Below are positions 6,355 to 35,238 of a stretch of DNA of 64,000 nucleotides, in pieces; position 1 is the first letter of the stretch, and each line of letters starts with the position of its first letter. The notes beneath the pieces are model-generated. The model searched no databases. It was not told the DNA's origin and saw nothing but the letters and a program-made list of their open reading frames with translations. Source of the DNA: Bacteroidales bacterium. GTDB lineage: Bacteria > Bacteroidota > Bacteroidia > Bacteroidales > F082. The DNA is taken from the NCBI GenBank assembly GCA_900769945.1, contig CAAGIO010000019.1, positions 16,414-80,413 on the forward strand. The letters are read 5' to 3'. The translations under genes and the position numbers were made by a program.

Positions 6355-7911
6355 ATGACTAATGCACGTATCCTCTGGGCCGATGACGAGATAGAACTTC
6401 TCAAGCCCCATATATTATTTTTGGAACATAAAGGCTATGACGTCGTCGTCACAAACAACGGCAGCGACGCCATCGAGCTTGTGAGACAGCAACACTTTGA
6501 TATAGTGTTCCTTGACGAACAGATGCCCGGCATCTCCGGCGTAGAGACATTAGAGAAGATAAAGTCGGACTTCCCTAACCTCCCCGTCGTCATGATAACA
6601 AAAAGCGAGGAGGAAAGCATCATGGAGGACGCTATCGGAAGCAATATCGCCGACTATCTCATCAAACCCGTGAACCCTAACCAGATTCTCCTCTCCCTGA
6701 AACGTAACCTCGAAAATAAAAAACTCGTGGATGAGAAGTCAACATCCAAATACCAGCAGGAGTTCCTGAAGATTGGCATGGACCTTAACAACAACCTCGA
6801 CTTCAACGAGTGGATCTCTGTCTATAAAAACCTTACACGCTGGGAGCTTGAACTCCAGAAAACCGCTGACGAGGGTATCAAAGAGGTGTTCTCCCTTCAG
6901 AAGCAGGAGGCCAACAACATCTTCTCGCGCTATGTGGAACGCAACTATAGCGACTGGGTGTCGGGACGCTGCGAACGCAAACCTGTTCTCTCTCATAACG
7001 TGGTGCGTGAGAAACTCCTTCCTCGTATCACCGACGACAACAAGCCTGTCTTCTTCATCTTGATAGACAACCTTCGTTACGACCAATGGAAGGCTATTCA
7101 GCCGATAGTGGAGAACTATTTCCGTGTGGAAGACGACAGCATCTATTACAGCATCTTGCCTACGACGACACAATATGCGAGAAACGCCATCTTCGCCGGC
7201 CTGATGCCCCTTGAGATTCGACGCCGCTTCCCAGCCTATTGGATTGATGAAGACGACGAGGGCACAAAAAACCAATATGAGGGCGAGCTCCTCGGTGAAC
7301 AACTACGCAGATATGGCAAGAATATCAAATACTCTTATAATAAGGTGCTGAACCTCGCCGCAGGAAAGAAACTCTTCGAACAGATGAACAACCTGATGCA
7401 GAACAAACTCAACGTCATAGTGTATAACTTCGTGGATATGCTCTCTCACGCCCGTACCGAGATGGAGATTATCCGCGAACTCGCAGATGACGAACAAGCT
7501 TACCGCTCACTCATGGTGTCATGGTTCGAACACTCTTCCCTCTTCGATATGATGAAGTTCATCTCACAGAAAGGCTGCGACGTGGTGGTCACTACAGACC
7601 ATGGCTCCGTGTGGGTGAAAAACCCCGTGAAGATCTTAGGCGATAAGGCAGTGAATACCAACCTGAGATATAAATATGGCAAGTCGCTGAAATATAACCC
7701 GAAAGAGATGTTCGAGGTGAAAGACCCGGAGAAAATACTGCTCCCACGATATAACGTATCCACATCCTTCGTCTTCGCACGCTCTAACGACTTCTTCGCC
7801 TATCCTAACAACTATAACTATTATGTCAACTATTATCGGAACACCTTCCAGCATGGAGGCATCTCTATGAACGAGATGTTGATTCCTGTCGCTTATCTTA
7901 AGGCAAAATAA
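6355..7911 (+). CDS. porX: PorX-type response regulator: N-terminal CheY-like receiver plus C-terminal PglZ (alkaline-phosphatase-like) domain; T9SS regulator
   Basis: MTNARILWADDEIELLKPHILFLEHKGYDVVV with a phospho-acceptor in VFLDEQMPGISG (receiver). The C-terminal VVTTDHGSVWV is a PglZ motif. 518 aa, the same length as P. gingivalis PorX. Confidence 0.8.
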   Translation: MTNARILWADDEIELLKPHILFLEHKGYDVVVTNNGSDAIELVRQQHFDIVFLDEQMPGISGVETLEKIKSDFPNLPVVMITKSEEESIMEDAIGSNIADYLIKPVNPNQILLSLKRNLENKKLVDEKSTSKYQQEFLKIGMDLNNNLDFNEWISVYKNLTRWELELQKTADEGIKEVFSLQKQEANNIFSRYVERNYSDWVSGRCERKPVLSHNVVREKLLPRITDDNKPVFFILIDNLRYDQWKAIQPIVENYFRVEDDSIYYSILPTTTQYARNAIFAGLMPLEIRRRFPAYWIDEDDEGTKNQYEGELLGEQLRRYGKNIKYSYNKVLNLAAGKKLFEQMNNLMQNKLNVIVYNFVDMLSHARTEMEIIRELADDEQAYRSLMVSWFEHSSLFDMMKFISQKGCDVVVTTDHGSVWVKNPVKILGDKAVNTNLRYKYGKSLKYNPKEMFEVKDPEKILLPRYNVSTSFVFARSNDFFAYPNNYNYYVNYYRNTFQHGGISMNEMLIPVAYLKAK

Positions 7912-11443: not shown

Positions 11444-13560
11444 TTATTTTAGGCCATGACGTTTAAGGAAAGGCTCAGTGCTTGGTTCCTGGCCTCTGAA
11501 TTTGATATACTGGACCATTCCGTCATCGTTGCCGCATTCTTGCAGGCAGTTGATTCTGAATGAGTTTGCGAGTTCTTTATTAAAGATGTCGCCAGATTGT
11601 TTGAAATAGTCGAAGGCGTCGCTGTCGAGCACTGCTGCCCAGTAATACACATAGTATCCGGCGGCGTAGGAGCCGGCGAAGATATGACCGAAATATGTGC
11701 TGCGGTAGCGTGGAGCTATTTCATTAATAAGTCCAATCTTGTCCATGGCGGCTTTTTCGAAGGCGTTGACGTCGATGTCCGATACTTCCGACATCTTGTG
11801 GTATTCCATGTCGAGGATGGCGGCGGCGAGGAACTCCACAGTGGCGAAGCCTTGGTTGAAGAGGCTGCTGTTCTTCATCTTAGCGATGAGGCTGTCGGGC
11901 ATAGGCTCGCCAGTCTGGTAGTGTTTAGCGAAGAGTCGTATCACAGAAGGCTCGTTAGCCCAGTTCTCCATAATCTGTGATGGGAGCTCCACGTAGTCGC
12001 GAGGGACGTTGCCGCAAGTCCTTGTGTACAGCCCGTCGGAGAAGAAGGCGTGGAGGCTGTGCCCGAACTCATGCCACATCGTCTCTGTCTCTTCCCATGA
12101 AAGAAGGGCAGGGCAGTCGGCTGTTGCAGGGGTGAAGTTCATGACGAGTTGCACGAGTGCCGGGATACGTTGTCCGTTGATGTCGTAGCCTTTTTCGCGG
12201 AAGGAGGTGCACCATGCGCCCGTGCCTTTGCTTGCGCGCGGATAGAAGTCGAGGTAAAGCAGTCCGAGGACGGAGCCGTCGTTGTCTCTCACCTCAAAGG
12301 TCTCAACGCCATTGAAATACACGGGGATGTCATGACGCTGGCTGAAGGTGATGCCGTAAAGCTTGTTGGCGGCGAGGAACATGCCGTCACGTACGTTGTC
12401 TATTGAGAGGTATGGCTTCAGCAGGTTCTCGTCGAAGTCGTATTTCTCCTTGCGCACCTTCTCGGCATAGTACCACCAGTCCCATGCCTCAAGCTTAATG
12501 CCGGCGTTCTCTTTGTCGGCTATGGCCTGCATCTCTGCCAGCTCGTCCTTTGCCACCTCAAGGGCGGGCACGAACAGCTCGTTGAGGAATTTGTCAACGT
12601 TGGCGGTGTTCTTCGCCATGTTGTCGGCGAGGACGAAAGAGGCATAGTCGTCGTATCCGAGGAGCTTGGCCTTCTGCACTCTAAGGTTCACAACCTCAGA
12701 GACGATGTCCTTGTTGTCATTAGCGTTGTCGTTGTTGGCGCGCATGGTGTATCCGCGGTACATCTTCTCGCGTAGTGCGCGGTTGTCGGCATATTGGAGG
12801 AAGGGTATAAGGCTTGGCTTTGCCGTGGTGAAGACGTATTTCCCGGGCATGCCTTTTTCGGCAGCCATCTCGGCGGCGGCATCGATGCTGCTTTGCGGAA
12901 GCCCTGACAAGTCGCTGGCGTCGTCAACGACCATCATGAAGGCGGCGTTCTCGGCAAGCATGTTCTGGTTGTACTGCAGGTTGAGGAGTGACAGCCGCTC
13001 GTTGATGCCGCGTAAAGTCTGCTGGTCTGCTTCGTTGAGACCCGCCCCCGACCTGATGAAATCGTCATAATATTTCTCCACGACCCTCTTCTGTTGCGCG
13101 TCGAGGCTCATGTTGTCACGGTTGTCGTAAACGTATTTTATCCTCTCAAAAAGCTCAGGCTTCATGGCGATGTCGTCACCATGGGCGGAAAGGAGAGGAG
13201 AGACTTCTTCTGCAATGTTAAGCATCTCCTCGTCGCTCATGCACTCCATGAGGTTGAAGAAGACGCCGCTGACCTTGTTGAGCATCTCACCCGCCTTGTC
13301 GAATGCCAATATTGTGTTCTCGAAAGTAGGAGCCGCGGTGTTGTTGCAGATGCTTTCAATCTCCGCCTTATGCTGGCGCATGCCCTCTTTGAAGGCCGGC
13401 ATGTAATGCTCCGTCTTTATCTTGTCGAAAGCCGGCGCCTCGAATGGTGTCCCGTAATCGGAGAAGAACGGGTTTTGTTCGCTGCCCGCATTGTCGCCGC
13501 AGCAGCTGTATAGACCAATAATGCTCATTGTGATGATAATTAAAATGTTTTTAATAGTCA
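11444..13560 (-). CDS. dcp: M3-family metallopeptidase (peptidyl-dipeptidase Dcp / oligopeptidase A-like), lipoprotein
   Basis: HEFGHSLH zinc-binding HEXXH motif. The N-terminus after the chosen start is MTIKNILIIITMSIIGLYSCC, a lipoprotein signal. The longer upstream ORF extension is AT-rich and unlikely to be real. Confidence 0.85.
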
Positions 13561-13688
13561 TAGTGATATGTGTTTTGTTATTTTTTGCAAAAGTAGTGCA
13601 AAATGTTGGAAAAAATACTTTTATTTTCAGAATAATATTTATAAATTTGCACATTCGTTTTTGAAAGTAAAACTTAATATGGATAATC

Positions 13689-15698
13689 ATGGCATATATT
13701 TCTTTTGATAAACAGCAGCTGGTGAATCTTGAGTTTACTATGAACAAGGAGATTCTCCGGTCGAACAGGTCGGGGGCGTTCTATAATACCACTATAATAG
13801 GGTGTAACACAAGGAAATACCACGGTCTGCTCGTCGTTCCCCAGCCTCAGTTGGACAATAACAACCATGTGTTGTTGTCGTCTATTGATGAGACCATCAT
13901 AGCTAACAAGGAGGAGTTTCATCTTGGTGTCCATGAGTATAGGGACGGTACGGTGGCTCCGCGCGGGCATAAGTATCTGAGGGCGTTCACTGCCGAGCCT
14001 ATCCCGAAGCTTGTGTTCCGTATTGGCAGCTCTGTCCTTTCAAAGGAGTATATCTTTGCTGAGAAGGAGCCGCGCATCCTGATACGATACACTCTTGAGG
14101 AGGCCGCGCAGCCGATAAGGCTCAGGCTGATGCCATTCCTCGCCTTCCGCAATGTGCACATGCTTACCCATGAGAACTACGCTGCGAAGAGGAGGTATGT
14201 CCCCCTGAAGAACGGCGCCGCATGGCAGATGTATGACAACTACGACACTCTATGCTTCCAGATGTCCAAGTCGCCTGAATACACGCACTGCCCTGACTGG
14301 TATAAAGATGTCTTCTATATCAGGGAGTTTGAGCGCGGATATGACGCGGTGGAAGACCTCTACGTCCCTGGGTTCTTTGAGGTGACGATGAGTGCGGGAG
14401 AGAGCGTGGTGGTATCGGCAGGCCTTGAAGAGAAGACACCTTCCACTTTCAAGCATCAGTTTGAGAGCCAGATAGAACAGCGTATCCCACGCGACAGCTT
14501 CGTGCATTGCCTCCAGAACTCTGCGGAACAGTTTATTATTAAGGAGAAGAACGGCACACGTATGTTCGCCGGCTTCCCGTGGTTCGGCTCCTGCAGCCGC
14601 GACACCTTCCTCTCTCTGCCGGGTATCTGCCTCGCTAATGGCGATGAGAAGACGTTCAAAGAGATGCTCGAATACCTCATAAAAAGGATGCAGGGCGCGT
14701 TCTTCCCACATAAATACTACCAGCAGAACCTCTACTATACCGCCGTTGACTCGCCCCTCTGGTTCTTCATGAACCTCCAGAAATATGAGTCGATGCTGAA
14801 AAAGAGCAGAAGACAGATATGGCGCGAGTATGGCGATGTGATGACAAGGATTCTCGACAGCTATATCGAAGGCACCGACTTCAATGTGAGGGCTTGCGAG
14901 AACGGACTCCTCTATGCCGGGAACGAGAACCTCGCCCTGACATGGATGAACGTGTTCTGTGACGGTAAGCCGTGGACCCCGCGCTATGGCTTCGCCATCG
15001 AGGTCAATGCGCTGTGGTATAACGCGCTGCGCTATGGTGTGGAGCTGCTGAAGTGCGCCGACACCAAGAACCCTCACCTGAAGGTCTGGCAGGAGATGGC
15101 TGACAAGATAGAGACGTCGTTTGTTGAGACGTTCTATGATGAGGATAACGACAGCTTCTTCGACTTCGTCAACGAAAGGGAGAGGAATGCCATGGTGCGT
15201 CCGAATATGATGATTGCGGGAGCGTTGCGCTACTCGCCACTGAAGGACACGCTGAAGAAGAGGATACTTGACATCACGCGTTCCGAGCTGCTGACAAGCA
15301 GGGGTCTGCGCTCGCTGTCGCCGAGAGACGAGAGCTATAAGGGCGTCACCATCGGCAACCATAAGGACAGGGAGCGTGCTTACCACATGGGCACGGTGTT
15401 CCCGTGGCTCATCATGCCTTACACCGACTTGTGCGTGAGGCTCTACAGAAGCACCGCGCTGCCTTACCTGCAAGACATGTATGACGGCTTTGAGAACGCC
15501 ATCTTCGAGAGCGGCATCGGGAGCATATCCGAGATTTACGACGGCAACCCGCCTCACGAGAGCAGAGGGTGTATCTCGCAGTCAACGAGCGTGGCAGCAC
15601 TGCTATACCTTAAATATGTCATAGATATTATTAGGAAATACGGCGATGACTGCTTGTCACGCCTTGATACCGATAACAAAAAAATTAATGCGTTATGA
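13689..15698 (+). CDS. Glycogen debranching enzyme-like protein (N-terminal GDE domain plus amylo-alpha-1,6-glucosidase six-hairpin domain)
   Basis: GFPWFGSCSRDTFLSLPGI and a C-terminal (alpha/alpha)6-type region; 669 aa. It is the first gene of a glycogen gene cluster. Confidence 0.75.
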   Translation: MAYISFDKQQLVNLEFTMNKEILRSNRSGAFYNTTIIGCNTRKYHGLLVVPQPQLDNNNHVLLSSIDETIIANKEEFHLGVHEYRDGTVAPRGHKYLRAFTAEPIPKLVFRIGSSVLSKEYIFAEKEPRILIRYTLEEAAQPIRLRLMPFLAFRNVHMLTHENYAAKRRYVPLKNGAAWQMYDNYDTLCFQMSKSPEYTHCPDWYKDVFYIREFERGYDAVEDLYVPGFFEVTMSAGESVVVSAGLEEKTPSTFKHQFESQIEQRIPRDSFVHCLQNSAEQFIIKEKNGTRMFAGFPWFGSCSRDTFLSLPGICLANGDEKTFKEMLEYLIKRMQGAFFPHKYYQQNLYYTAVDSPLWFFMNLQKYESMLKKSRRQIWREYGDVMTRILDSYIEGTDFNVRACENGLLYAGNENLALTWMNVFCDGKPWTPRYGFAIEVNALWYNALRYGVELLKCADTKNPHLKVWQEMADKIETSFVETFYDEDNDSFFDFVNERERNAMVRPNMMIAGALRYSPLKDTLKKRILDITRSELLTSRGLRSLSPRDESYKGVTIGNHKDRERAYHMGTVFPWLIMPYTDLCVRLYRSTALPYLQDMYDGFENAIFESGIGSISEIYDGNPPHESRGCISQSTSVAALLYLKYVIDIIRKYGDDCLSRLDTDNKKINAL

Positions 15699-16987
15699 GA
15701 GTCTTGATGTTCGGGTGGGAGTTCCCCCCACATATCACCGGCGGACTGGGGACAGCGTGCTTCGGCATGACAAAAGGTCTCGCTAAAAACGGTGTGGAGG
15801 TTCTTTTCGTGGTGCCTAAGGCTCATGGCGATGAGGACCAGTCAAGTGTGCGCCTGCTTAATGCGAGCGAGGTGACGGTCAATATCGACCACGAGGCTGA
15901 CAGGAGCTATTGGGACCGGGTGCAGTATATGGAGATAGGCTCTAACATCATCCCATACGTCGGGCCGGAACAATACTCGTCGATGGTGGAGGAGTACCGG
16001 CACGCTACCAAGGGATTCCATAGCTCGGTGTTCGCCCCACGCTACGAGTTCTCCGGTAAATACGGCGCTAACCTCATGGAGGAGGTCGCCCGCTATGCCC
16101 TCGTCGGCTCGTCTCTCGCCACAAAATACGACTTCGACATCATACATGCCCACGACTGGCTCACCTATTCCGCCGGCGTGGCCGCCAAAGAGACCACAGG
16201 CAAGCCCCTCGTGGTGCACATGCACGCCACCGAGTTCGACAGGTCCGGAGAGAATATTAACACCGACGTGTTCGCTATAGAGAAACGCGGCATGGAGATG
16301 GCCGACATGGTCATCACCGTCAGCGACTGGACAAAGAAGATTGTGGTTGAGAAGTACGGCATCAACCCTAATAAGATTGTCACCGTACATAACGCCGTGG
16401 AACCGAGCGACAAGTCGTTGGACGAATATGAGCGCAGCGGATTGAAAAACAAAGTCGTGACCTTCCTCGGCAGGATAACATACCAGAAAGGACCGGAATA
16501 CTTCGTGGAGGCAGCACATAAAATCCTTCAGGTTGACCCCGACATACACTTCGTCATGGCAGGCACCGGCGATATGCTGAACAAGATGGTACGACGCGTC
16601 GCACAACTCAAGATGGGCGCAAACTTCCATTTCACCGGCTTCCTGAAAGGTAACGACGTGGACCAGATGTTCGCCATGACAGATGTGTTCGTAATGCCGT
16701 CAATATCAGAGCCTTTCGGCATAGTGCCCCTCGAAGCCATGCGCCTCAACGTACCCGTAGTGATTTCTAAACAGTCAGGAGTGTCCGAAGTGGTGAAACA
16801 CGCCCTCAAAGTGGACTTCTGGGATATCAACGGTCTCGCCGACGCCATCTATGGACTGTGCAAATATAAGGCGGTAAGCGATATCTTCCGTAAAGAAGGC
16901 AAAGAAGAGGTGGATAACCTTAAATGGGAATACGCCTCCAAGAAAATTAAAGCCGTTTATAATAATGTATTGAGTAATAACGATTAA
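15695..16987 (+). CDS. Glycosyltransferase family 4 (glycogen-cluster GT4)
   Basis: MRVLMFGWEFPPHITGGLGTACFGMTKGL N-terminal GT-B motif and a C-terminal SISEPFGIVPLEAM E-X7-E region. The start overlaps the preceding gene (ATGA). Confidence 0.8.
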   Translation: MRVLMFGWEFPPHITGGLGTACFGMTKGLAKNGVEVLFVVPKAHGDEDQSSVRLLNASEVTVNIDHEADRSYWDRVQYMEIGSNIIPYVGPEQYSSMVEEYRHATKGFHSSVFAPRYEFSGKYGANLMEEVARYALVGSSLATKYDFDIIHAHDWLTYSAGVAAKETTGKPLVVHMHATEFDRSGENINTDVFAIEKRGMEMADMVITVSDWTKKIVVEKYGINPNKIVTVHNAVEPSDKSLDEYERSGLKNKVVTFLGRITYQKGPEYFVEAAHKILQVDPDIHFVMAGTGDMLNKMVRRVAQLKMGANFHFTGFLKGNDVDQMFAMTDVFVMPSISEPFGIVPLEAMRLNVPVVISKQSGVSEVVKHALKVDFWDINGLADAIYGLCKYKAVSDIFRKEGKEEVDNLKWEYASKKIKAVYNNVLSNND

Positions 16988-16993
16988 AAAACA

Positions 16994-18127
16994 ATGAATA
17001 TGAGATCTGTTTGCTTCTGCTTCCAAGTGCACCAGCCATATAAACTCCGCACATACCGCTTCTTCGAGATTGGCAAACGCCACCAATACTACGACGATTA
17101 TTTCAACCGTATCACTATGCAGCGCGTGGCAGAACACTGCTACCTCCCAATGAATAACCTCATGCTGAAGAAAATAAACCAACTCGGAGAAAGATTCAAC
17201 TTCTCCATCTCTTTCTCCGGCATTGGACTGGAACTGATGCAGATGTTTGCCCCTCAGGCCTTGGAGAGCTTTAAAAACCTTGTCTCCACCAGTAACGTCG
17301 AGGTGCTCGCCGAGACATACTCACACTCCATCTCATCTCTCATGAATAAACAGGCTTTTAAGATGGAAGTGAATGAACATAAGAACCTTATGAAGGAACT
17401 GTTCGGTGTCAGACCTAAGACTTTCCATAATACCGAGCTGATATATTCTAACGAGATAGGTGCCGACGTGGCTGAAATGGGTTATAAGATGATGATAACC
17501 GACGGCGCAAAACATATTCTCGGATGGAAAAGCCCTAACTACCTATATACCAACGCGATAAACCCGAAGCTGAAGATAATGCTGCGTAACTATAAGCTCA
17601 GCGACGTCATCGCCCTGAAGTTCGGAAAGGAGCCTGTCACCGTTGACGACTTTATTGGATGGCTTAACGCTATCCCCGCCGATGAGGATGTGGTGAACAT
17701 TTTCCTCGATTATGAGACCTTCGGAGAGTATAAAGATGCATCGACGGGTATCTTCGACTTTATGGACTACCTGCCTGACGCTATTTTGAAATATACTGAC
17801 TTCCAAATAGTTACACCTTCGCAGATAATGAATCAGCTGCAACCTCTCGGAGTGTTCGACGCCCCAGTACCTCTCTCATGCCGCGACGAGGAACGTGACG
17901 TCTCTACTTGGATGGGTAACGATATGCAGGACGACGCCCTCGCCTCCTTGTACTCCTGCTTCAAGAAAGTGAAGTCATCGAAAGACCCGGAGCTGAAGAG
18001 AGACTGGAGATGCCTGCAGTCAGCCGAATATTTCGCATCAATGTGTACCAAGAACCCTAACGGCACCCCTTATGACACCTATATTAATTATATGAATATC
18101 TTAACAGACTTTAAAACACGAATTTAA
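16994..18127 (+). CDS. Glycoside hydrolase family 57 protein (alpha-glucan-acting)
   Basis: FCFQVHQPYKLRTY is the GH57 HQP signature; 377 aa. Confidence 0.75.
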   Translation: MNMRSVCFCFQVHQPYKLRTYRFFEIGKRHQYYDDYFNRITMQRVAEHCYLPMNNLMLKKINQLGERFNFSISFSGIGLELMQMFAPQALESFKNLVSTSNVEVLAETYSHSISSLMNKQAFKMEVNEHKNLMKELFGVRPKTFHNTELIYSNEIGADVAEMGYKMMITDGAKHILGWKSPNYLYTNAINPKLKIMLRNYKLSDVIALKFGKEPVTVDDFIGWLNAIPADEDVVNIFLDYETFGEYKDASTGIFDFMDYLPDAILKYTDFQIVTPSQIMNQLQPLGVFDAPVPLSCRDEERDVSTWMGNDMQDDALASLYSCFKKVKSSKDPELKRDWRCLQSAEYFASMCTKNPNGTPYDTYINYMNILTDFKTRI

Positions 18128-18166
18128 TCATCGCATGCTCATACAACATGCAATAATGTAGAATAT

Positions 18167-21100
18167 ATGAAGAATCCGAATTATATCTTTGAGACAAGCT
18201 GGGAAGTATGTAACATGATAGGCGGCATCTATACCGTGCTGTCAACAAAAGCAGAGGAGCTGACGCAACTGCTTGGCGACCACTATATTACCGTTGGTCC
18301 CGACATTGTGAAGGAATCTCATGAGACGTTATACTTTATTGAGGACAGCAACCTTTTCCAAGAATGGCGCGAGAAAGTGGCATCAAATTTAGGAATAAAG
18401 GTTAGGGTGGGAAGATGGAAGATTTCCGGTAACCCTATCGCGGTGCTCGTTGACTATACGTCACTTTATCCTATTAAAAACGAGATACTTGGACATCTGT
18501 GGGAACAATATCAACTTGACTCAATACAAGGACAGTGGGACTATATCGAGCCTGTGATGTTCGGTTTCGCCGCCGGCAAGGTGATAGAGAGCTTCGTGGA
18601 CTGGTGCGTCGGCGTTGACGATACCGTGGTGGCACAGTTCCATGAGTGGATGACAGGCGCCGGCGTCCTTTATCTTAAAGAACACTGCCCTCATATCTCC
18701 ACCGTCTTCACAACGCATGCCACATATCTCGGAAGGGCTATAAGTGGAAACGGCCTCCCTCTCTACGGGAAATTAGACTCTTATAATCCTCAGACTATGG
18801 CAAGCCGCTTCAACATTGTCTCTCAACAGTCGATGGAGTCGAAGTCAGCTCAGAACGCCGATGTGTTCACCACCGTGAGCGATATCACCGCTCAAGAATG
18901 CGAGTGCTTCCTAAACCGTAAGCCTGACTTCATCACTATCAACGGCATAAATAGCGACTCCGTTGTTGATGGCAAGGAGAAAGAACGCCTTCGCGCGATG
19001 AGCAGAGAGAAGGTCTTCGCCGTGGCTGATGCCATCTGCGGAAAAAAAGTGCCCCGTGACTCTTTCCTGATTCTTAACAGCGGACGCTATGAGTTCCATA
19101 ATAAAGGTATCGACCTGTTTATCAAGATGTTGGCAAACCTGAATAAGGAACAGTCTCTGCAACGCGACATTGTCGCCGTCATAGCAGTGCCGGGCAATAT
19201 CTCCGGCCCTTATGACGAGCTCGCACACCGCCTCAATAAGACATGGGACTTCGCTAAAGACAATGTTGAAACCACTACCGAGTACCCTATTACTCACCAT
19301 CTCTTCGACTTCCAATACGACAGTGTGCTTAACGCCTTGCGCGACAACGGCTTGAATAACGCCGAGAACGACAAGGTTAAAGTGATGTTCGTCCCTGCCT
19401 ATCTCAATGGCGACGATGGCATCTTTAATATTAAATATAGTGACTTCCTCTTCGGCTTCGACCTCACGGTGTTCCCATCTTATTATGAACCATGGGGATA
19501 CACCCCGCTCGAGAGTATCTCGCACGGAATACCAACCGTGACTACAGACGTGGCTGGCTTCGGAAAATATATCCTTGAGAACTACTTCAACACTGAGGCC
19601 GTCACCGTAATACATCGTACCGAAAATGACTCTAACAATGTGGCGCGCGAACTCACTGATGTGGTTCTCGACATCGCTTCACTCAACACAATGAAATATA
19701 ACGAGATAGCTGATAACGCTTTCGAGATAGCCAAGACCTTCGTTTGGAAAAAACTGATTGTCAACTATCTCAAAGCCTACGATATGGCCGTCGGTAAGTC
19801 GGCAGGTAAAGACTATCTCAAGAAAACGAAGAAATATTCTGAGGTGCTCAGGGTGTTCGATTATAAGAAACAAGACAGCCCAACATGGAAGAAAATGCTC
19901 GTCGAACCGGCATACTCAAAAGAGATGAAGAAACTCCAAGAGCTCGCCAACAACGTCTGGTGGTGCTGGAACATCGACGCAGTGGAGCTGTTTGAATACA
20001 TTGATGCAGAAGCGTTTGAACGTCTTGAACAGAACCCCGTCGCCTTGATAAAGAACCTTACCAAGTTCCAAATAGAAAGCCTTGAGCAGGATAAGGAGTT
20101 TGTCGCGAAACTTGACAAGGTTTATGATAAGTTCGTGAAGTATATGTCGCAGAAGCCTTCTGATGATAACAAGATAGCCTACTTCAGCATGGAATACGGC
20201 TTGCTCAAGTCGCTGAAGATTTATTCAGGCGGACTTGGAATCCTTGCTGGCGACTATCTGAAACAGGCCTCCGACTCGAACGCCAACATGCTTGCTATCG
20301 GACTCCTATACCGCTACGGCTACTTCAACCAGGCTCTCTCGGTGTCGGGAGAACAGCTGTCGCAATACCTGCCACAGAAGTTCTCCGAGTTGCCTCTCGA
20401 ACCCGTGCGCGACGACGATGGCAACTGGGTGACGATAAGCATCGCTTTCCCAGGAAGGATAGTGTATGCCAAGGCTTGGAAAGTGAATGTCGGACGCGTC
20501 AGCCTCTATCTGCTCGACACCGACATACAGCAGAACTCACCTCAAGACCGCGCCATCACCGGCCAACTGTACGGCGGCGATAACGAGATGCGTATCAAAC
20601 AAGAGATGTTCCTCGGTATTGGCGGTATCCGACTCCTTAACGCATTGAATATCAAACCGACAATCTATCACTGCAACGAAGGTCATGCCGCCTTCTGCGG
20701 ACTTGAGCGTTTGAGCAACTACGTCTCAAACAATAATCTCGACTTCGACGTTGCCAAAGAGCTTGTCAGAGCCTCAACATTGTTCACGACACACACACCT
20801 GTTCCCGCCGGCCATGACGCCTTCGAGGAACATCTCATGAGGACATATCTCCCTCATTACGCTAACAGGATTAATATCTCATGGGAAGACTTCATGAGCC
20901 TCGGACGTATTCGTAAAAAAGACCCTAACGAGAAATTCTCCATGAGCGTCCTCGCTACAAACCTTAGCCAAGAAGTCAACGGCGTGAGTAGGATTCACGG
21001 GCGGGTGAGCCGTGAGATGTTCCAGAAAATGTGGCCGGGATACTTCGCGGAAGAAAACCATATCGGCTATGTTACTAACGGAGTGCACCTCCCTACATGG

Positions 21101-22411
21101 ACTGACAGAAACTGGCAGAGACTGTACTCTGAGGTCTTTGGCGAGAACTATATCGATAACCAATCGGACCCTGCTGTGTGGGAGAAGATAAAAGATGTAA
21201 AGGACGAGGTGATATGGGGCATACGTAAGAAGTTGAAACATAACCTTATAGAGTTCCTCAAAGTGAAGATAGCCGATGATATGCAGAACCGTTCCGAAAG
21301 CCCGCGCCTCATCTTGGATACCATTGAGAACCTTAATGAGAACGCACTCATCATAGGCTTCGCACGTCGCTTCGCCACATACAAACGTGCCCATCTTCTC
21401 TTCACTAACATCGAACGCCTCTCGAAAATCGTCAACGATGTCAACCGCCCCGTGATATTCCTCTTCGCAGGAAAAGCACACCCTAACGATAAGGCTGGAC
21501 AAGACCTTATAAAGAATATCATTGAGGTGGCAAGACGTAAGGACTTCGTGGGTAAAGTGCTGTTTGTCAATAATTATGATATGGAAATCGGTAAACTCCT
21601 CACCTCAAGCGTCGATGTGTGGATGAATACCCCTACACGCCCTCTCGAAGCATCAGGCACATCAGGAGAGAAAGCCGTCATGAACGGGACTCTCAACTTC
21701 TCGGTGCTCGACGGCTGGTGGGCAGAAGGCTACCGCCCGAACGCAGGCTGGGCTATTAAAGAAGAACGCACCTACTCCGACCAAAGATACCAAGACGAAC
21801 TCGATGCCGAGACAATTTATAATACCCTCGAAAACGAAATTATCCCTCTGTATTTCAATAGAGATGAAGATAATGTCCCTTCCCAATGGATTTCATTCAT
21901 GAAGAACAACCTAACAGGCATCGCCCCGTTCTATACCATGAAACGTATGCTCGACGACTATTTCAACCAGTATTATCTCAAGTTGATTGAACGCACGAAT
22001 ATCTTGCGTACTGACAAGTATAAGAAGGCTTTAGAGATTGTCGAGTGGAAGAGGAATGTTAACGCTAACTGGGATAAGATTGAGGTGGAATCGATAAAGG
22101 TACCTGACCCGGATGTGAGACCGCTCACCTTCGGCGACGAGTTCGTGGCTGAGATAACCCTCAAGACCCCCGGCCTCAAGAAAGGCGATGTGGGCGTAGA
22201 GATACTCTTTGCTGATAAGGTTAACGATGTGATTGACAAGCTTATTAGCGTCAAACCTCTCGATCTGGTTGACTACGGCGAAGGCTGGGCTCGCTACTAT
22301 ATCAGCATGCCTGTCCAATATTCAGGTGTGTTCAACTACACCTTCCGTATCTTCCCGACCAATGCCGACCTCCCTCACCGTCAAGACCTGCCTTTGGTGA
22401 AATGGATTTGA
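18167..22411 (+). CDS. Fusion protein: N-terminal GT3 eukaryotic-type glycogen synthase plus C-terminal GT35 alpha-glucan phosphorylase (with DUF3417-like N-terminal extension)
   Basis: N-terminal ETSWEVCNMIGGIYTVLSTKA resembles the GT3 glycogen synthase start. The C-terminal half has the DUF3417-like WWCWNIDAVELFEYIDAEAFERL, the phosphorylase region DRAITGQLYGGDNEMRIKQEMFLGIGG, and the PLP-site motif EASGTSGEKAVMNGTLNFSVLDGWW. It is a single uninterrupted 1414-aa ORF. Confidence 0.8.
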   Translation: MKNPNYIFETSWEVCNMIGGIYTVLSTKAEELTQLLGDHYITVGPDIVKESHETLYFIEDSNLFQEWREKVASNLGIKVRVGRWKISGNPIAVLVDYTSLYPIKNEILGHLWEQYQLDSIQGQWDYIEPVMFGFAAGKVIESFVDWCVGVDDTVVAQFHEWMTGAGVLYLKEHCPHISTVFTTHATYLGRAISGNGLPLYGKLDSYNPQTMASRFNIVSQQSMESKSAQNADVFTTVSDITAQECECFLNRKPDFITINGINSDSVVDGKEKERLRAMSREKVFAVADAICGKKVPRDSFLILNSGRYEFHNKGIDLFIKMLANLNKEQSLQRDIVAVIAVPGNISGPYDELAHRLNKTWDFAKDNVETTTEYPITHHLFDFQYDSVLNALRDNGLNNAENDKVKVMFVPAYLNGDDGIFNIKYSDFLFGFDLTVFPSYYEPWGYTPLESISHGIPTVTTDVAGFGKYILENYFNTEAVTVIHRTENDSNNVARELTDVVLDIASLNTMKYNEIADNAFEIAKTFVWKKLIVNYLKAYDMAVGKSAGKDYLKKTKKYSEVLRVFDYKKQDSPTWKKMLVEPAYSKEMKKLQELANNVWWCWNIDAVELFEYIDAEAFERLEQNPVALIKNLTKFQIESLEQDKEFVAKLDKVYDKFVKYMSQKPSDDNKIAYFSMEYGLLKSLKIYSGGLGILAGDYLKQASDSNANMLAIGLLYRYGYFNQALSVSGEQLSQYLPQKFSELPLEPVRDDDGNWVTISIAFPGRIVYAKAWKVNVGRVSLYLLDTDIQQNSPQDRAITGQLYGGDNEMRIKQEMFLGIGGIRLLNALNIKPTIYHCNEGHAAFCGLERLSNYVSNNNLDFDVAKELVRASTLFTTHTPVPAGHDAFEEHLMRTYLPHYANRINISWEDFMSLGRIRKKDPNEKFSMSVLATNLSQEVNGVSRIHGRVSREMFQKMWPGYFAEENHIGYVTNGVHLPTWTDRNWQRLYSEVFGENYIDNQSDPAVWEKIKDVKDEVIWGIRKKLKHNLIEFLKVKIADDMQNRSESPRLILDTIENLNENALIIGFARRFATYKRAHLLFTNIERLSKIVNDVNRPVIFLFAGKAHPNDKAGQDLIKNIIEVARRKDFVGKVLFVNNYDMEIGKLLTSSVDVWMNTPTRPLEASGTSGEKAVMNGTLNFSVLDGWWAEGYRPNAGWAIKEERTYSDQRYQDELDAETIYNTLENEIIPLYFNRDEDNVPSQWISFMKNNLTGIAPFYTMKRMLDDYFNQYYLKLIERTNILRTDKYKKALEIVEWKRNVNANWDKIEVESIKVPDPDVRPLTFGDEFVAEITLKTPGLKKGDVGVEILFADKVNDVIDKLISVKPLDLVDYGEGWARYYISMPVQYSGVFNYTFRIFPTNADLPHRQDLPLVKWI

Positions 22412-22545
22412 TGTCTTGTGATGTGGGGATTGTATTCCGAACATGATGATAATCAATGTTTGACTAATAATCTGATATGTATATTGCCGAGTGCCGATTC
22501 TTTTTGGAGTCGGCACCGGTATGAAAAAAATATGACAAAAAAACG

Positions 22546-23121
22546 ATGGCTGATAAACCAAAAATAATATATATACATGGTTTCGGAGGCTCACCTAATT
22601 CTCAGACAGTGGGCTTCTTGAATCAATGTTATCCTGAGATAGAGTGGTGCGCCCTCGAAGTGGACCACCATGTCGCGTCGTCTGTCAACCTTATCAACGA
22701 CTATGCAAGAAAGAACGGCGTGCTTGCAATGACTGGCACATCCCTCGGCGGTTTCTATGTGCTGTGCTCCGACTTTACGGGTCCAAAACTTGTTATTAAC
22801 CCTGTCATTGAACCGATGAAGTCTCTGAAGAAAAATGTTGGAACGGTGCAGTACCACAGCCGTAGGAGCGACGGCGCAAAATCGTTCAAGTTCACAATGC
22901 AGGACCTGTTCGAGTTTAAGAAGTTCAAGTTCAATGCTGGAGATAATGTCACCTGTCACTATACCGAACATGATAATGTGCTTGGTGATGACATAAAACG
23001 CGACTACGAGAAGTTGTTTGCTAACCGAAAGATGTGTTCAAAGAAGACGTTGCCTTCGCATATCATTAGCGAGAGCTACATACGTCATGACCTTGGGGAG
23101 TGGATAGCCAGTTTGTTATGA
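22546..23121 (+). CDS. YqiA-family alpha/beta-hydrolase esterase (UPF0227)
   Basis: KIIYIHGFGGSPNS and a GTSLGG nucleophile elbow; 191 aa. Confidence 0.7.
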   Translation: MADKPKIIYIHGFGGSPNSQTVGFLNQCYPEIEWCALEVDHHVASSVNLINDYARKNGVLAMTGTSLGGFYVLCSDFTGPKLVINPVIEPMKSLKKNVGTVQYHSRRSDGAKSFKFTMQDLFEFKKFKFNAGDNVTCHYTEHDNVLGDDIKRDYEKLFANRKMCSKKTLPSHIISESYIRHDLGEWIASLL

Positions 23122-23155
23122 TGTGATGGGCTGGCGTTGGCATGAGGCTGCTGCG

Positions 23156-23716
23156 CTATCGTCGTCTGAACACTTCAAGAGCGATGTGTGCGCACGCCTC
23201 CGCATCCGCCAATGCGTGATGATGCTTCGTGAGGTCGTACCCGCACTGCGCCGCCACTGTCTGTAACTTGTGGTTCTCCAAATCGGGAAACACCACCTCC
23301 GACGCCTTGTGCGTGCAATATATCTTGAATTTCCTGCCCCGCATCCTATAATGCTCGAAAAGCGCTTTCAAACAACGCTCCTCGAACGACTTGCCGTGCG
23401 CCACAAACGCTAACCCTCCTATCATGCCCTTGACCTGATTCCATACCTGTGGGAATAATAGCGCGTTGTCGGTGTCCTGCTTCTTTATCCCGTGTATCTT
23501 GGTGGTCCAGAAATCATAATAGTTTGGGGTCGGCTTGATGAGGCTGTAATATGAGCCGACAATTATCCGGTTCCTGACAATGACAATGCCTACGCTGCAT
23601 GCACTCGTGATGTTGCCGTTGGCTGCCTCAAAGTCTATCGCCGCAAAATCGTCAAGCACAGGTAATACTATCTCGCCTGCTTTTTCCCCGACAGTCGTCT
23701 CTTTGACTGTAATCAT
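23156..23716 (-). CDS. DEDDh 3'-5' exonuclease (DnaQ-like) domain protein
   Basis: Exo I motif AAIDFEAANGN and Exo III motif HHALADAEACAHI; 186 aa standalone exonuclease domain. Confidence 0.75.
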   Translation of the reverse strand: MITVKETTVGEKAGEIVLPVLDDFAAIDFEAANGNITSACSVGIVIVRNRIIVGSYYSLIKPTPNYYDFWTTKIHGIKKQDTDNALLFPQVWNQVKGMIGGLAFVAHGKSFEERCLKALFEHYRMRGRKFKIYCTHKASEVVFPDLENHKLQTVAAQCGYDLTKHHHALADAEACAHIALEVFRRR

Positions 23717-31525: not shown

Positions 31526-32359
31526 ATGTTTTACAAGATGCGCATTACCATTGTAAAATTGTTGTTGACGCTTGTAGTCCTGCTCTCTGTCAACACCTTT
31601 GTCAAAGGGCAGGACGATGGCTCTCCTCTCGACACCATCGACTTCACCGATAACACCCTCGTCGATAGCGAGCTGCTGCGTGTCGCCATATCCGATTTCT
31701 TGACAAACGCACAGGACTTCTCCCAGCCGGAGCAACGCCAGATGTATGACCTTATTCTCGCAGCCGATAACGTGCTGTCAAGATGTGTCTCTTCTTTCGA
31801 GATGTATAGGTTCGTCTATCATTTCATGATCACCGGATTCACAGAAATGGGAGCTACCCTCGTGGTGGATTATATGATGCGTATGCCTTATATCGAGTAT
31901 CTTGACGCTACAAAGGAACAACGTGCCGAGCTCTATGACCTCGCCGAACAGTTCAATAGGGTCAAAATAGGCTCTGTCGCACCGGATATTAATGCGTTGA
32001 CTATCAAAGGTGATACCTTCTCACTTCATGATGCTGAATCGCATTTTTTTGTGATTCTGTTCTGGTCTTACTCTTGCCCTCATTGTAGGGAAATGTTAAA
32101 AGAACTTGCTTCCCTGTCAAAAAACGACGATGTTATGATAATAACGGTCAATGTGTCGGGGAAGAAGAAAAAGGTTAATAGGCTGTTGCGCTCTCTGAAG
32201 GTCAACGGCATAAACATTTGTGACGGCCTTGGCTGGGAATCGCCCGTCGTTGGTGATTTCGCCGTCAATATGACGCCATCGCTGTTCGTTTTAGATAATG
32301 ATAAAAAAATTGTCGCCCGTCCATTCGGGATAAATGAAATAATGGAGATTGTTAGGTGA
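31526..32359 (+). CDS. TlpA-like thiol-disulfide oxidoreductase (thioredoxin fold), secreted
   Basis: Signal or anchor sequence. C-terminal thioredoxin domain with a CxxC active site (ILFWSYSCPHCREMLKEL). Confidence 0.65.
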   Translation: MFYKMRITIVKLLLTLVVLLSVNTFVKGQDDGSPLDTIDFTDNTLVDSELLRVAISDFLTNAQDFSQPEQRQMYDLILAADNVLSRCVSSFEMYRFVYHFMITGFTEMGATLVVDYMMRMPYIEYLDATKEQRAELYDLAEQFNRVKIGSVAPDINALTIKGDTFSLHDAESHFFVILFWSYSCPHCREMLKELASLSKNDDVMIITVNVSGKKKKVNRLLRSLKVNGINICDGLGWESPVVGDFAVNMTPSLFVLDNDKKIVARPFGINEIMEIVR

Positions 32360-35238
32360 TGAAAAAAGTATTCCTTTCGTTTTTTGTGTTATTCTTGTCG
32401 TTTGTAGTAAAGTCGCAGAATGAGGAGGACCGATGGGTTGATTCGGTGTATAACTCTCTGACCTTGGAGCAGCGTGTAGGCCAGCTTATTAATGCAAGGG
32501 CGAACTATCCGAATAAGATGTGCCCACAGGATTTGTTCGAACTCGTTGAGAATTATAATATTGGCGGTATCACCTTCTTCCGTACCGATGCTCTGCCGCT
32601 TCTGCAGCAGACCAATGCGTTGCAGTCGTTGGCACAGACGCCAATGATGGTGAGTATCGATGGGGAATGGGGTCTCGGTATGCGCCTCAACGATGCTATC
32701 TCTTACCCGTATCAGATGACACTCGGCGCAGTGCAGAATGTGCAGCTTATCGGCGAGATGGGAAGACAAATTGCCGAGCAGTGCCGCCGCCTTGGGATAA
32801 ATGTCGATTTCGCCCCCGATATTGACGTCAACAACGAGCCTCATAACCCCGTGATAGGCATGAGGAGCTTCGGTGAAGACCCCTTCAATGTGGCAGTGCG
32901 TGGCACCCAATACGCCTTGGCTCTTCAGAATAATAACGTCCTGCCTTCGATGAAACATTTCCCCGGACATGGCGACACAAAGACTGACTCGCACGAGACC
33001 CTGCCCGTGGTTCATAAGCCTTTAGAAGAGGTACGTAAGACGGAGCTGTTCCCTTTTCAATACCTTATTAATAAAGGTGTTAACTCCGCCATGGTCGGGC
33101 ATCTCTATATCCCGGCAGTGGAGCCGATACCAAACACCTCGTCCTCAATGTCGTATAACGTTGTGACAGAGCTACTTAAAAAAGACCTCGGCTTCGATGG
33201 CATTGTCTTCACTGATGCTCTCGAGATGAAAGGTGCTTATAATAATATCCATACTGATAGTGTGGGACTTCACGCCCTCCTCGCTGGAAATGACGTGCTT
33301 CTGATGCCATTGAACCCTATTAAGACTATTGAGATAATCGTCGGCGCAGCTGATGACAGCGTCGTGTATCGCAGAATAGAGGAGAGCTGTAGGAAAATCC
33401 TTAGAATCAAGTACCGCATTGGTCTTCACCATTACTCGCCCCAGATAGAGCTCGGCCTTGATAACGATTTGAAACAGTCGAGATACTATAACCTTCGCCA
33501 ACAGCTTTATAATGAGGCTGTTACAATGCTGAAAAATAATAACGAGGCTCTCCCGCTCGATAAGGAGCTGAGTTATGCCGTGGTGACTTTCAGTGATGAC
33601 GATAACGTGGCGCGACAGTTGAAAAAACAAGGATACCTCGTAAAGTCTATTATGGTGGGTAAAGATGTCTCCGCAAGAGATTGTAATATGATTGTCAAAG
33701 AGTTAAAGGCATACGACTGCGTGATTGTGAATATTCAGAACACCTCGATATTCGCTTCAAAAGCTTATGGCGTAACAGATAATATGAAACGTTTTGTGAA
33801 GGAGTGTAGTAAGCATAAAAACCTGATTTTCAATCTCTTTGCCTGCCCTTACGCATTAGATATGTTCGATTTTAAGAAAGAACCGCAAGCAGTAATCATT
33901 GGTTATGAGGATAAGCAAGATGCCGTCAATGCTGTTGTTGATGTCATGCTTGGCAAAATCAATCCAAAGGGAAAGCTGCCTGTCACTGTGAATAAAAAAT
34001 ATAGGATTGGCTGTGGCATGGGTTTTCCGGGTATGCTTACTCCTGAGACCTTGCCTGTGTCGTTGATAAACAACGATTTCACGCGCAAGATAGACTCTAT
34101 CGCTCTTAATGGAATAGAAATTAAGGCTTTCCCCGGCTGCCAGATTTTTGCAATGAAAGATGGTAATGTCATCTATGACAAATGCTTCGGGAGCTTCACC
34201 TATTCCGGCGAACATGAGGTGCGTGCCGATGACGTCTATGACCTTGCCTCTCTCACCAAGGTCTTCGCAAGCACTTTGGCGATAATGAAACTCTATGATG
34301 AAGGTAAAATCAGCCTCGAATCTCGTCTAAAAGACTTTTTCCCTTATCTTAATTCAACAGAGAAGGGAGATTTGCGCCTGATTGAGATTATGACACATCA
34401 GGCTGGCCTAACACCTTGGATTCCAATATATACCGTGACGATGAAGGACGGAAAACCTAACCCGGAACTGTTCAGGTCCTTCATTGATGAGGATCATACA
34501 GTGAAAGTGGCTGACAAGATGTTTATAGAGAATGACTTCAGTTATTTCATCTTCGATACTGTGATGAGGTCAAGCATGATTGAAAAGAAGTACAAATACA
34601 GTGATTTGGGATTTTATTTCTTCCCTGCTATTGTTGAAATGGTTACTAATCAGCCGTTTGAGACTTTTCTGTATGAGAATTTCTATAAGCCGTTGAACCT
34701 TAGTCATATCTTTTTCAAGCCATTGAAGCATATCGCATTAGAGAAGATCGCTCCAACCGAGAACGACACGGTCTTCAGGATGCAGCAGCTTCAGGGCTAC
34801 GTTCATGACCAGTGCGCTGCTTTGCTTGGCGGAGTGTCGGGGCATGCCGGCTTGTTTGGCAACGCCCGTGACATCGCTGTGCTTCTCCAGCTCCTTCTCG
34901 ATGATGGATTCGCTAATAACAGGCAGTTCTTGTCAAAACACACTATTAATAAATTCACCTCTGCACCGTTTGCCGACAATATGAATCGCCGTGGCATAGG
35001 GTTCGACAAGCCGGAGATAGACCCTTCCGTGGAATATTACACCCCTGCCTTGCAGTCCTCGCCCCGAAGCTTCGGTCATACAGGCTTCACCGGCACCTTC
35101 GCTTGGGCAGACCCCGATAATGACCTTATTGTGGTCTTCCTGTCCAACAGGGTCTTCCCCGACGCATCAAATAACCTGATTTCCAAACTCGATATCAGGA
35201 CAAATATCCATGAACTGTTCTATGAGGCCGTCAAATAA
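32356..35238 (+). CDS. Bifunctional GH3 beta-N-acetylhexosaminidase (NagZ-like) / serine beta-lactamase-family hydrolase, secreted
   Basis: Signal peptide. The GH3 NagZ motif is KHFPGHGDTKTDSH. The C-terminal part has an SxxK active site (DLASLTKVF) and HTGFTG (a KTG-like motif) of penicillin-binding/beta-lactamase-fold serine hydrolases. 960 aa. The start overlaps the upstream stop. Confidence 0.8.
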   Translation: MMKKVFLSFFVLFLSFVVKSQNEEDRWVDSVYNSLTLEQRVGQLINARANYPNKMCPQDLFELVENYNIGGITFFRTDALPLLQQTNALQSLAQTPMMVSIDGEWGLGMRLNDAISYPYQMTLGAVQNVQLIGEMGRQIAEQCRRLGINVDFAPDIDVNNEPHNPVIGMRSFGEDPFNVAVRGTQYALALQNNNVLPSMKHFPGHGDTKTDSHETLPVVHKPLEEVRKTELFPFQYLINKGVNSAMVGHLYIPAVEPIPNTSSSMSYNVVTELLKKDLGFDGIVFTDALEMKGAYNNIHTDSVGLHALLAGNDVLLMPLNPIKTIEIIVGAADDSVVYRRIEESCRKILRIKYRIGLHHYSPQIELGLDNDLKQSRYYNLRQQLYNEAVTMLKNNNEALPLDKELSYAVVTFSDDDNVARQLKKQGYLVKSIMVGKDVSARDCNMIVKELKAYDCVIVNIQNTSIFASKAYGVTDNMKRFVKECSKHKNLIFNLFACPYALDMFDFKKEPQAVIIGYEDKQDAVNAVVDVMLGKINPKGKLPVTVNKKYRIGCGMGFPGMLTPETLPVSLINNDFTRKIDSIALNGIEIKAFPGCQIFAMKDGNVIYDKCFGSFTYSGEHEVRADDVYDLASLTKVFASTLAIMKLYDEGKISLESRLKDFFPYLNSTEKGDLRLIEIMTHQAGLTPWIPIYTVTMKDGKPNPELFRSFIDEDHTVKVADKMFIENDFSYFIFDTVMRSSMIEKKYKYSDLGFYFFPAIVEMVTNQPFETFLYENFYKPLNLSHIFFKPLKHIALEKIAPTENDTVFRMQQLQGYVHDQCAALLGGVSGHAGLFGNARDIAVLLQLLLDDGFANNRQFLSKHTINKFTSAPFADNMNRRGIGFDKPEIDPSVEYYTPALQSSPRSFGHTGFTGTFAWADPDNDLIVVFLSNRVFPDASNNLISKLDIRTNIHELFYEAVK

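Follow-up and report, generated by a model that had tools for sequence, protein, structure and literature searches.

A fused glycogen synthase and alpha-glucan phosphorylase encoded by a single gene in a Bacteroidales bacterium

A 64,000-nucleotide stretch of DNA from a Bacteroidales bacterium (GenBank assembly GCA_900769945.1, contig CAAGIO010000019.1, positions 16,414 to 80,413 of the forward strand; hereafter the window, within which all positions are counted) encodes at 18167..22411 on the plus strand a single polypeptide in which a GT3 glycogen synthase is joined through a linker to a GT35 alpha-glucan phosphorylase. The open reading frame (ORF) begins with an ATG codon and specifies 1414 amino acids plus a stop; the ORF listing contains no stop and no change of frame within it, and the opposite strand holds only short, mechanically listed ORFs that overlap the gene. 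The ORF list, Pfam and NCBIfam all bear out the original prediction, made from the sequence alone, of one in-frame GT3-GT35 polypeptide, and catalytic residues are kept in both halves. More specifically, the protein consists of two independently folding GT-B modules connected by a short tether of constrained length, and the catalytic residues that were checked in each module are intact and under purifying selection. The protein is thus predicted to be a genuine bifunctional 'glycogen phosphorylase/synthase', and this bifunctionality is the firmer part of the interpretation; the rationale proposed below, in which the phosphorylase would tether the synthase to its substrate, is the weaker part and is drawn by analogy with a stand-alone phosphorylase. 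The architecture is both real and already known.

Integrity and distribution of the fusion gene

An independent strain supports the integrity of the gene. A database protein (P0001), 99.6% identical to the window protein and the representative of 641 sequences clustered at 90% identity, comes from an independent gut-metagenome contig, and the four genes upstream of it are the same as in the window. That contig and the window are colinear over 14.3 kb at 99.26% identity with zero gaps. Across the fusion ORF itself the DNA identity is 99.2% with no insertions or deletions, and the 35 differences comprise 29 synonymous and 6 non-synonymous changes, none of which falls within residues 540-600. This excess of synonymous changes, together with the lack of gaps, indicates that in both strains the gene is functional and under purifying selection. 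All of the 120 best database homologs are 1397-1423 residues long, share 65-100% identity with the window protein at 100% query coverage and possess the same domain set. The region between the modules (about 19850-19990), where a missed stop or frameshift had been suspected, has an identical sequence in the independent assembly, and the junction (residues 541-600) is gap-free in the alignment of the 120 homologs.

The same architecture is found well beyond these close relatives. When the database was searched with one representative per 50%-identity cluster, at least 30 distinct clusters of approximately 1400-residue proteins matched residues 1-1200 in a single stretch, with identities as low as 35%. 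When each species was represented by one genome, 599 loci with a GT3 relative were found. In the best 80 of these loci residues of about 1-700 were matched in one segment each, and both halves lie in one stop-to-stop frame in 79 of the 80 species genomes. The sole exception is a locus in the Bacteroidales metagenome-assembled genome (MAG) ABC2.51 (L072, 3-3845), in which the fusion ORF is ended by a stop after 1120 codons, with the rest of the phosphorylase in another frame; this looks like a frameshift that represents either a pseudogene or a sequencing error.

These observations contradict the alternative, raised in the original prediction, that the fusion is an isolated anomaly or an artefact of assembly or sequencing in which a stop was removed or a frameshift hidden between adjacent genes. 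Split loci with the same gene order do occur elsewhere (L083 and L084, below), which speaks for such an artefact. Nevertheless, the gapless colinearity of the independent contig with its identical junction, the uniform length of the 120 homologs, the 641-member cluster, the single ORF in 79 of 80 genomes, the presence of the fusion in at least five phyla and a linker of fixed length with invariant residues together rule this explanation out for practical purposes. A conserved internal start that would yield a separate phosphorylase was likewise considered and rejected, as there is no conserved methionine near the start of the GT35 module; M577 is replaced by valine or isoleucine in most homologs and M587 sits within the first helix.

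The taxonomic distribution of the fusion is broad. Over the first 700 residues the nearest genomes are those of the uncultured rumen Bacteroidales RUG079 and RGIG8190 (72% identity each) and of Ca. Limimorpha (69%). The closest relatives lie among uncultured rumen and gut Bacteroidales and Ca. Limimorpha, and not in the Prevotellaceae and Bacteroidaceae that had been named for comparison. By these affinities the window itself derives from an uncultured Bacteroidales lineage of gut or rumen outside Prevotellaceae and Bacteroidaceae proper. Fused carriers include Alistipes spp., Rikenellaceae, Butyricimonas, Dysgonomonas sp. HGC4, Tenuifilaceae, Marinilabiliaceae, Lentimicrobiaceae, Ca. Limimorpha and one Flavobacteriales MAG. 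The fusion is also carried by Chitinophaga filiformis and by members of the Desulfovibrionaceae, Planctomycetota and Bdellovibrionota, as well as by the acidobacterium Sulfidibacter corallicola.

Unfused versions also exist. The Segatella copri phosphorylase ScGP is a stand-alone protein of 852 residues, and a Porphyromonas GT35 phosphorylase is a stand-alone protein of 858 residues with no adjoining GT3 gene. Two metagenome contigs (L083, 2946-6085, and L084, 837-3127) carry GT4, GH57 and GT3 (556 amino acids) genes followed by a stop, approximately 150 nucleotides and then a phosphorylase gene in another frame. The expectation of separate adjacent genes is therefore borne out only in part: split genes do occur in relatives (not adjacent in the case of Porphyromonas), although fusion is the rule in this lineage (79 of 80 genomes).

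Neighbour-joining trees of the GT3 half and of the GT35 half recover the same major groups, suggesting that the two halves have evolved as a unit. In quartet bootstraps, which are independent of the root and from which the Ca. Limimorpha sequence was left out, 99-100 of 100 replicates place the unfused Porphyromonas phosphorylase with the Bacteroidales fusions and apart from those of Chitinophaga and Planctomycetota, and in two further quartets unfused GT3 proteins join particular fused lineages (96-100 of 100). This nesting of unfused forms within the fused clade suggests later splits. An old fusion followed by several later fissions is thus the most economical reading of these distance trees of few taxa, and is likely rather than proven. 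A separate observation concerns P0194 (697 amino acids), a GT3 synthase in which an unrelated C-terminal extension of approximately 150 residues replaces the phosphorylase; either a different fusion or a chimeric assembly could account for it.

Catalytic modules and the tether between them

The GT3 glycogen synthase module (amino acids 1-547, 18167..19807) has a GT-B fold and was identified by Pfam, by alignment with eukaryotic glycogen synthases and by Foldseek. Glycogen_syn (PF05693) matches at amino acids 9-340 (E 2.7e-98; 330.7 bits against a cutoff of 27) in two stretches that take in both Rossmann halves, and Glycos_transf_1 matches at amino acids 432-512. The N-terminal half aligns with the solved glycogen synthases of C. 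elegans, human and yeast at E values of about 1e-76 to 1e-78, and the predicted structure matches the yeast, human and worm enzymes in Foldseek at about 1e-41 with target-normalised TM scores of 0.7-0.8. The eukaryotic-type GT3 start that had been pointed out, ETSWEVCNMIGGIYTV, is located at amino acids 9-24. The FExSWE, FHEW, TTHAT, GRYEFxNKG (R307, K313) and E-X7-E motifs are all present, the last as EPWGYTPLE (19487..19513) with E441 and E449 as the two glutamates. These two residues are found in 120 of 120 close homologs and in 24-25 of 25 distant fused homologs; across the wider set of E9, W12, E13, H159, E160, W161, H184, R190, R307, K313, E441 and E449 the corresponding counts are 120 of 120 and 22-25 of 25. 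One departure concerns the NKVGG-motif lysine, which is methionine (Met17) in the window protein and all 120 close homologs. Among the 25 distant fusions this position is lysine in 14 and methionine in 7, so that both residues occur as natural variation within the family and membership in GT3 is not excluded.

The GT35 module occupies residues 579-1414. It begins with the alpha-helical DUF3417 domain, which had been predicted as a DUF3417-type phosphorylase N-terminus and which Pfam places at amino acids 585-683 (PF11897, E 6.3e-29; 19919..20215). The catalytic core that follows (amino acids 670-1272, 20174..21982) is supported by TIGR02094, by the S. copri structure 9L6I and by Foldseek. The alpha-glucan phosphorylase family model TIGR02094 scores 848.8 bits against a cutoff of 191.7 over model positions 1-600 of 600, and Phosphorylase (PF00343) matches at amino acids 832-1183. 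The score against NF041129, the Thermococcales maltodextrin phosphorylase equivalog, is 757.8 bits, below its cutoff of 1500, which marks the window protein as a relative and not as an equivalog. A clade-2 type C-terminal beta-sheet domain, assigned by alignment with ScGP, extends from about amino acid 1290 to 1414 (22034..22408, the start being approximate), and a GlgP_C domain (PF28476) is given in the precomputed Pfam annotation of P0001. From residue 582 to the last residue the C-terminal half aligns end to end with 9L6I at 927 bits, and the predicted structure matches ScGP in Foldseek at E 8e-70 and 52% identity.

The residues of ScGP that hold the pyridoxal phosphate (PLP) cofactor or take part in catalysis (K609, H316, R507, R508 and K513) correspond to K1169, H876, R1067, R1068 and K1073 of the window protein, and the proximal AMP-site residues E278 and Y512 to E838 and Y1072. 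The PLP lysine lies in the motif EASGTSGEKAVMNG, found at amino acids 1161-1174 (21647..21688) as the original prediction had it. None of these seven residues varies among the 120 close homologs; in the distant fusions each is kept in 22-25 of 25, and K1169 in all 25. Most of the exceptions among the distant fusions are due to one or two degenerate sequences, such as that of Sulfidibacter. The single distal AMP-site residue compared behaves differently. The position of ScGP Arg583 is K1143 in the window protein (21593-21595) and is lysine in 34, serine in 32, asparagine in 25 and glycine in 15 of the 120 closest homologs. As Arg583 is required for the AMP-induced formation of inhibitory ScGP decamers (PMC12912991), AMP control of the ScGP type is probably not conserved in the window clade, judging by this residue. 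As an observation in its own right, the fused protein of Sulfidibacter corallicola (P0157, WP_237377747.1) has degenerate motifs in both halves, with YQSWGF in place of YEPWGY and SATGLSG in place of EASGTSG, and may be a pseudoenzyme version of the fusion.

The modules are connected by the tether KDYLKKTKKYSEVLRVFDYKKQDSPTWKKML (amino acids 548-578, 19808..19900). Its length is constrained: measured between fixed landmarks, 119 of 121 close sequences have 58 residues here, and distant sequences have 53-70. Y557, K568, D570, P572, W574 and K575 are invariant in the close clade and K576 is present in 120 of 121. The D-x-P-x-W part of the tether is similar to N-terminal sequence in two stand-alone proteins, P0153 (NDPVW) and P0155 (GNPSW), and its position is that of the ScGP N-terminal loop (residues 1-23), which is ordered in the structure determined by cryo-electron microscopy (PMC12912991). 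The freely flexible portion of the tether is thus probably only about 20 residues long. An AlphaFold2 monomer model of residues 1-1200, built from a 41-sequence alignment, has a mean pLDDT (per-residue confidence) of 87 with both halves confidently predicted; pLDDT is mostly 80-95 in the GT3 module and falls below 50 at residues 549-578, and the pTM, the global model score, is 0.58. The model is consistent with two well-folded modules that have no defined position relative to each other.

Proposed mechanism and competing explanations

The favoured reading of the fusion, to which as a whole a probability of about 0.65 is assigned, is that of a bifunctional enzyme whose synthase is held on the glycogen particle, whose net direction is set by metabolites and whose role lies in rapid glycogen turnover. 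The N-terminal module would add glucose from a nucleotide-sugar donor, which is probably UDP-glucose, the donor of the GT3 family and of Prevotella bryantii, to alpha-1,4 chains at their non-reducing ends. The C-terminal module would take glucose off the same ends with phosphate (Pi) and PLP to yield glucose-1-phosphate (G1P). ScGP is an active, AMP-inhibited phosphorylase whose pentamer, built by the DUF3417 helical domain, wraps glycogen particles (PMC12912991). The phosphorylase module of the fusion would likewise oligomerise and grip the particle, keeping the synthase tethered, and equimolar, on a substrate surface common to both modules. The eukaryotic controls by glucose-6-phosphate (G6P) and phosphorylation are absent and so cannot decide the net direction, which would instead follow from UDP-glucose supply, Pi/G1P and nucleotides; it is proposed that an enzyme governed in this way supports rapid glycogen turnover. 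The suggestion in the original prediction that the apparent futile cycle implies reciprocal regulation or a scaffolding role is a reasonable conjecture, for which the AlphaFold2 model offers no evidence of a fixed interface that might let one half regulate the other.

Several points weigh against this reading. Literature searches found no enzymology of any fused member, such that both activities are predictions from sequence. The AlphaFold2 monomer (residues 1-1200) shows no defined contact between the halves and hence lends no support to allosteric cross-talk between them. The gene has apparently been split again in several lineages, suggesting that the covalent linkage is not indispensable, and a pentameric ring may not tolerate five N-terminal passengers of 547 residues each. 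Because the distal AMP-site arginine is not kept in the clade, the regulation of ScGP is not simply transferable to the fusion. The replacement of the NKVGG lysine by methionine in the window clade is also to be counted here.

An alternative that appears unlikely is that the phosphorylase half is mainly synthetic or serves as a primer holder. The GT35 module would then bind malto-oligosaccharides or extend them from G1P and hand them to the synthase, making the whole an 'initiation plus elongation' synthase rather than a synthase/degrader pair. GT3 synthases depend on a glucan primer, glycogenin is lacking in bacteria, and no GT8 glycogenin-like gene was seen in the scans of the window. The plastidial phosphorylase of plants has been discussed as a starch-initiation factor. 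Eukaryotic GT3 enzymes require primers made by glycogenin, according to a 2024 review (PMC11046441), and ScGP also runs in reverse, towards synthesis, with a Km for G1P that is comparatively good, although its kcat in that direction is much below that of other phosphorylases (PMC12912991). Phosphorylases themselves need primers, however, and the stand-alone homologs are regarded as degradative enzymes. The Pi/G1P ratios of cells normally favour phosphorolysis, which further argues against a synthetic role, and the neighbouring GT4 protein, a relative of GlgM and of archaeal GlgA, is a more obvious candidate initiator.

Rather less probable still is that the fusion is a dedicated glycogen-cycling module on the particle surface which, together with UDP-glucose pyrophosphorylase, would convert UTP and Pi to UDP and pyrophosphate (PPi) and so feed the PPi-dependent glycolysis of anaerobes. 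The stoichiometry follows from three textbook reactions, and both modules look active, to judge from their residues, and are locked in a 1:1 ratio. Glycogen cycling as a source of PPi is a published hypothesis for Clostridium thermocellum (PMC8863071), and simultaneous glycogen synthesis and breakdown has been measured in rumen Fibrobacter (PMC4432691). None of the window genes scanned, on the other hand, bears on PPi metabolism. Were this explanation true, what looks like a futile cycle would conserve energy as a phosphoryl shuttle instead of wasting it. That one half is instead a catalytically silent scaffold or glycogen-binding module, as in a pseudoenzyme fusion, is very improbable. The distant P0157 is degenerate in both halves and the NKVGG lysine is methionine in the window clade, as this explanation would have it, but the other catalytic and cofactor residues are invariant in 120 close homologs and nearly so in 25 distant ones, a pattern that is not expected of a pseudoenzyme.

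The distinction between cycling, tethering and priming bears on how Bacteroidota start glycogen without glycogenin or GlgC, and on the origin of the 'energy spilling' that occurs through glycogen cycling. The fusion family is common in gut and rumen Bacteroidales, Alistipes included, and the existence of cultured carriers and of a solved homolog makes the mechanism straightforward to test.

Genomic neighbourhood and comparison with known systems

The fusion closes a glycogen operon of four closely spaced genes on the same strand. The first encodes a GH133-type amylo-alpha-1,6-glucosidase (GDE_N and GDE_C domains, 669 amino acids; 13689..15698, plus strand), whose stop is overlapped by 4 nucleotides by the gene for a GT4 glycosyltransferase (430 amino acids; 15695..16987, plus strand); a GH57 family protein follows (377 amino acids; 16994..18127, plus strand) and ends 39 nucleotides before the fusion starts. 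The triad neighbours the fusion at about 40 of the 80 related loci, upstream of it in most Bacteroidales and directly downstream in Alistipes and Rikenellaceae (downstream in L043, L050, L052, L061, L063, L065, L069, L073, L074 and L078), such that the four genes remain linked despite the changed order. The nearest solved relatives of the GT4 protein are GlgM, an alpha-maltose-1-phosphate synthase (6tvp, 77.7 bits), and Pyrococcus abyssi GlgA; its role may be that of the missing initiator or of an additional glucan synthase. The GT4 genes of archaeal glycogen clusters carry question marks in the 2024 Chem Rev review (PMC11046441). The GH57 protein has no NCBIfam match at E <= 0.01 and no PDB sequence match at E <= 1e-3. 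No GH13 branching enzyme, glgC or galU was found among 20 further large ORFs of the window that were scanned. A promoter and terminator scan of 13300-23200, using a tool that does not cover Bacteroidota promoters, gave counts not above shuffled expectation, and it placed no plus-strand terminator inside the operon.

Elsewhere in the window, a 960-residue ORF (32356-35238, plus strand) combines GH3 N- and C-terminal domains with a Beta-lactamase-family domain. A 2097-residue ORF (44019-50312, minus strand) contains four CHB_HEX_C_1/Fn3_assoc repeats and is adjoined by a gene (51291-53189, minus strand) for a protein with a Por_Secre_tail sorting domain of the type IX secretion system (T9SS), a feature in keeping with an origin in Bacteroidota. 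A 518-residue protein (6355-7911, plus strand) consists of a response-regulator receiver domain fused to a PglZ domain.

The architecture of the fusion has already been catalogued. KEGG K16153 is defined as 'glycogen phosphorylase/synthase [EC 2.4.1.1 2.4.1.11]' (quoted in PMC8307300 and PMC11017998) and, judged by module content and by the names of homologs, places the same two activities on one polypeptide as does the window protein. Product names given by JGI to the homologs P0045, P0273, P0337 and P0360 are 'phosphorylase/glycogen(starch) synthase' and 'glycogen phosphorylase/synthase'. The NCBI name for the homologs, by contrast, is only 'alpha-glucan family phosphorylase', and this phosphorylase-only name hides the synthase half. 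The novelty initially attached to the fusion was thus overstated, and is low given that the architecture is both catalogued and common in gut Bacteroidales. Surveys of the gut microbiome repeatedly report K16153 as differentially abundant. K16153 is itself a database label for which no experimental paper was found, and literature searches found no experimental study describing or testing the fusion. In the text examined, the 2024 review of prokaryotic alpha-glucan enzymes (PMC11046441, consulted in part) discusses Bacteroidetes GT3 and does not mention the fusion, and the 2026 ScGP paper (PMC12912991) does not mention glycogen synthase, GT3 or the fusion.

Among characterised systems, Prevotella bryantii is likewise a member of the Bacteroidota that uses a eukaryote-type synthase. 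It makes glycogen from UDP-glucose without glgC (Lou et al. 1997, as cited in PMC7935935 and PMC4432691), and its UDP-glucose pyrophosphorylase is activated by fructose-1,6-bisphosphate (PMC4432691); the 1997 work described enzyme activities. Precedents for two alpha-glucan enzymes on one polypeptide are GlgA-GlgB in Waddliaceae and Criblamydiaceae, TreS-Mak, and GlgB-MalQ in Neisseria (PMC7935935; PMC11046441). Those fusions join consecutive or same-direction steps, whereas the window protein joins opposing activities, both of which are seemingly intact; the second domain of GlgA-GlgB is reportedly inactive, unlike what the conserved residues suggest for the window fusion. The phosphorylase half is most readily compared with ScGP (PDB 9L6I, a clade-2 GT35 enzyme; PNAS 2026, PMC12912991), with which it has in common the PLP lysine, the catalytic H/R/R/K residues, the DUF3417 domain as well as a beta-sheet domain at the C-terminus. 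ScGP stands alone, whereas in the window protein a synthase of 547 amino acids is borne on what is the N-terminal loop of ScGP.

The synthase half shares its Pfam family, fold and catalytic motifs with the eukaryotic GT3 enzymes (yeast Gsy2p, human GYS1 and C. elegans GSY-1), although at an identity of only 26-30%. The arginine cluster that senses G6P in the eukaryotic enzymes is absent, human RRQRIIQRNRTER aligning to MKYNEIADNAFE in the window protein. The N- and C-terminal phosphorylation tails have no counterpart, the human enzyme being aligned from residue 28 to approximately residue 618, and unlike the eukaryotic enzymes the window synthase has no glycogenin partner. Opposite the eukaryotic insert at about 371-465, the aligned region of the window protein is approximately 42-48 residues shorter. 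This insert is presumably the tetramer interface of the eukaryotic enzymes; if so, a clash between tetrameric and pentameric symmetry need not arise in the fusion. Glycogen synthase and phosphorylase are the textbook example of a reciprocally regulated pair, and in the fusion the two are joined in one polypeptide from which the known eukaryotic switches are gone.

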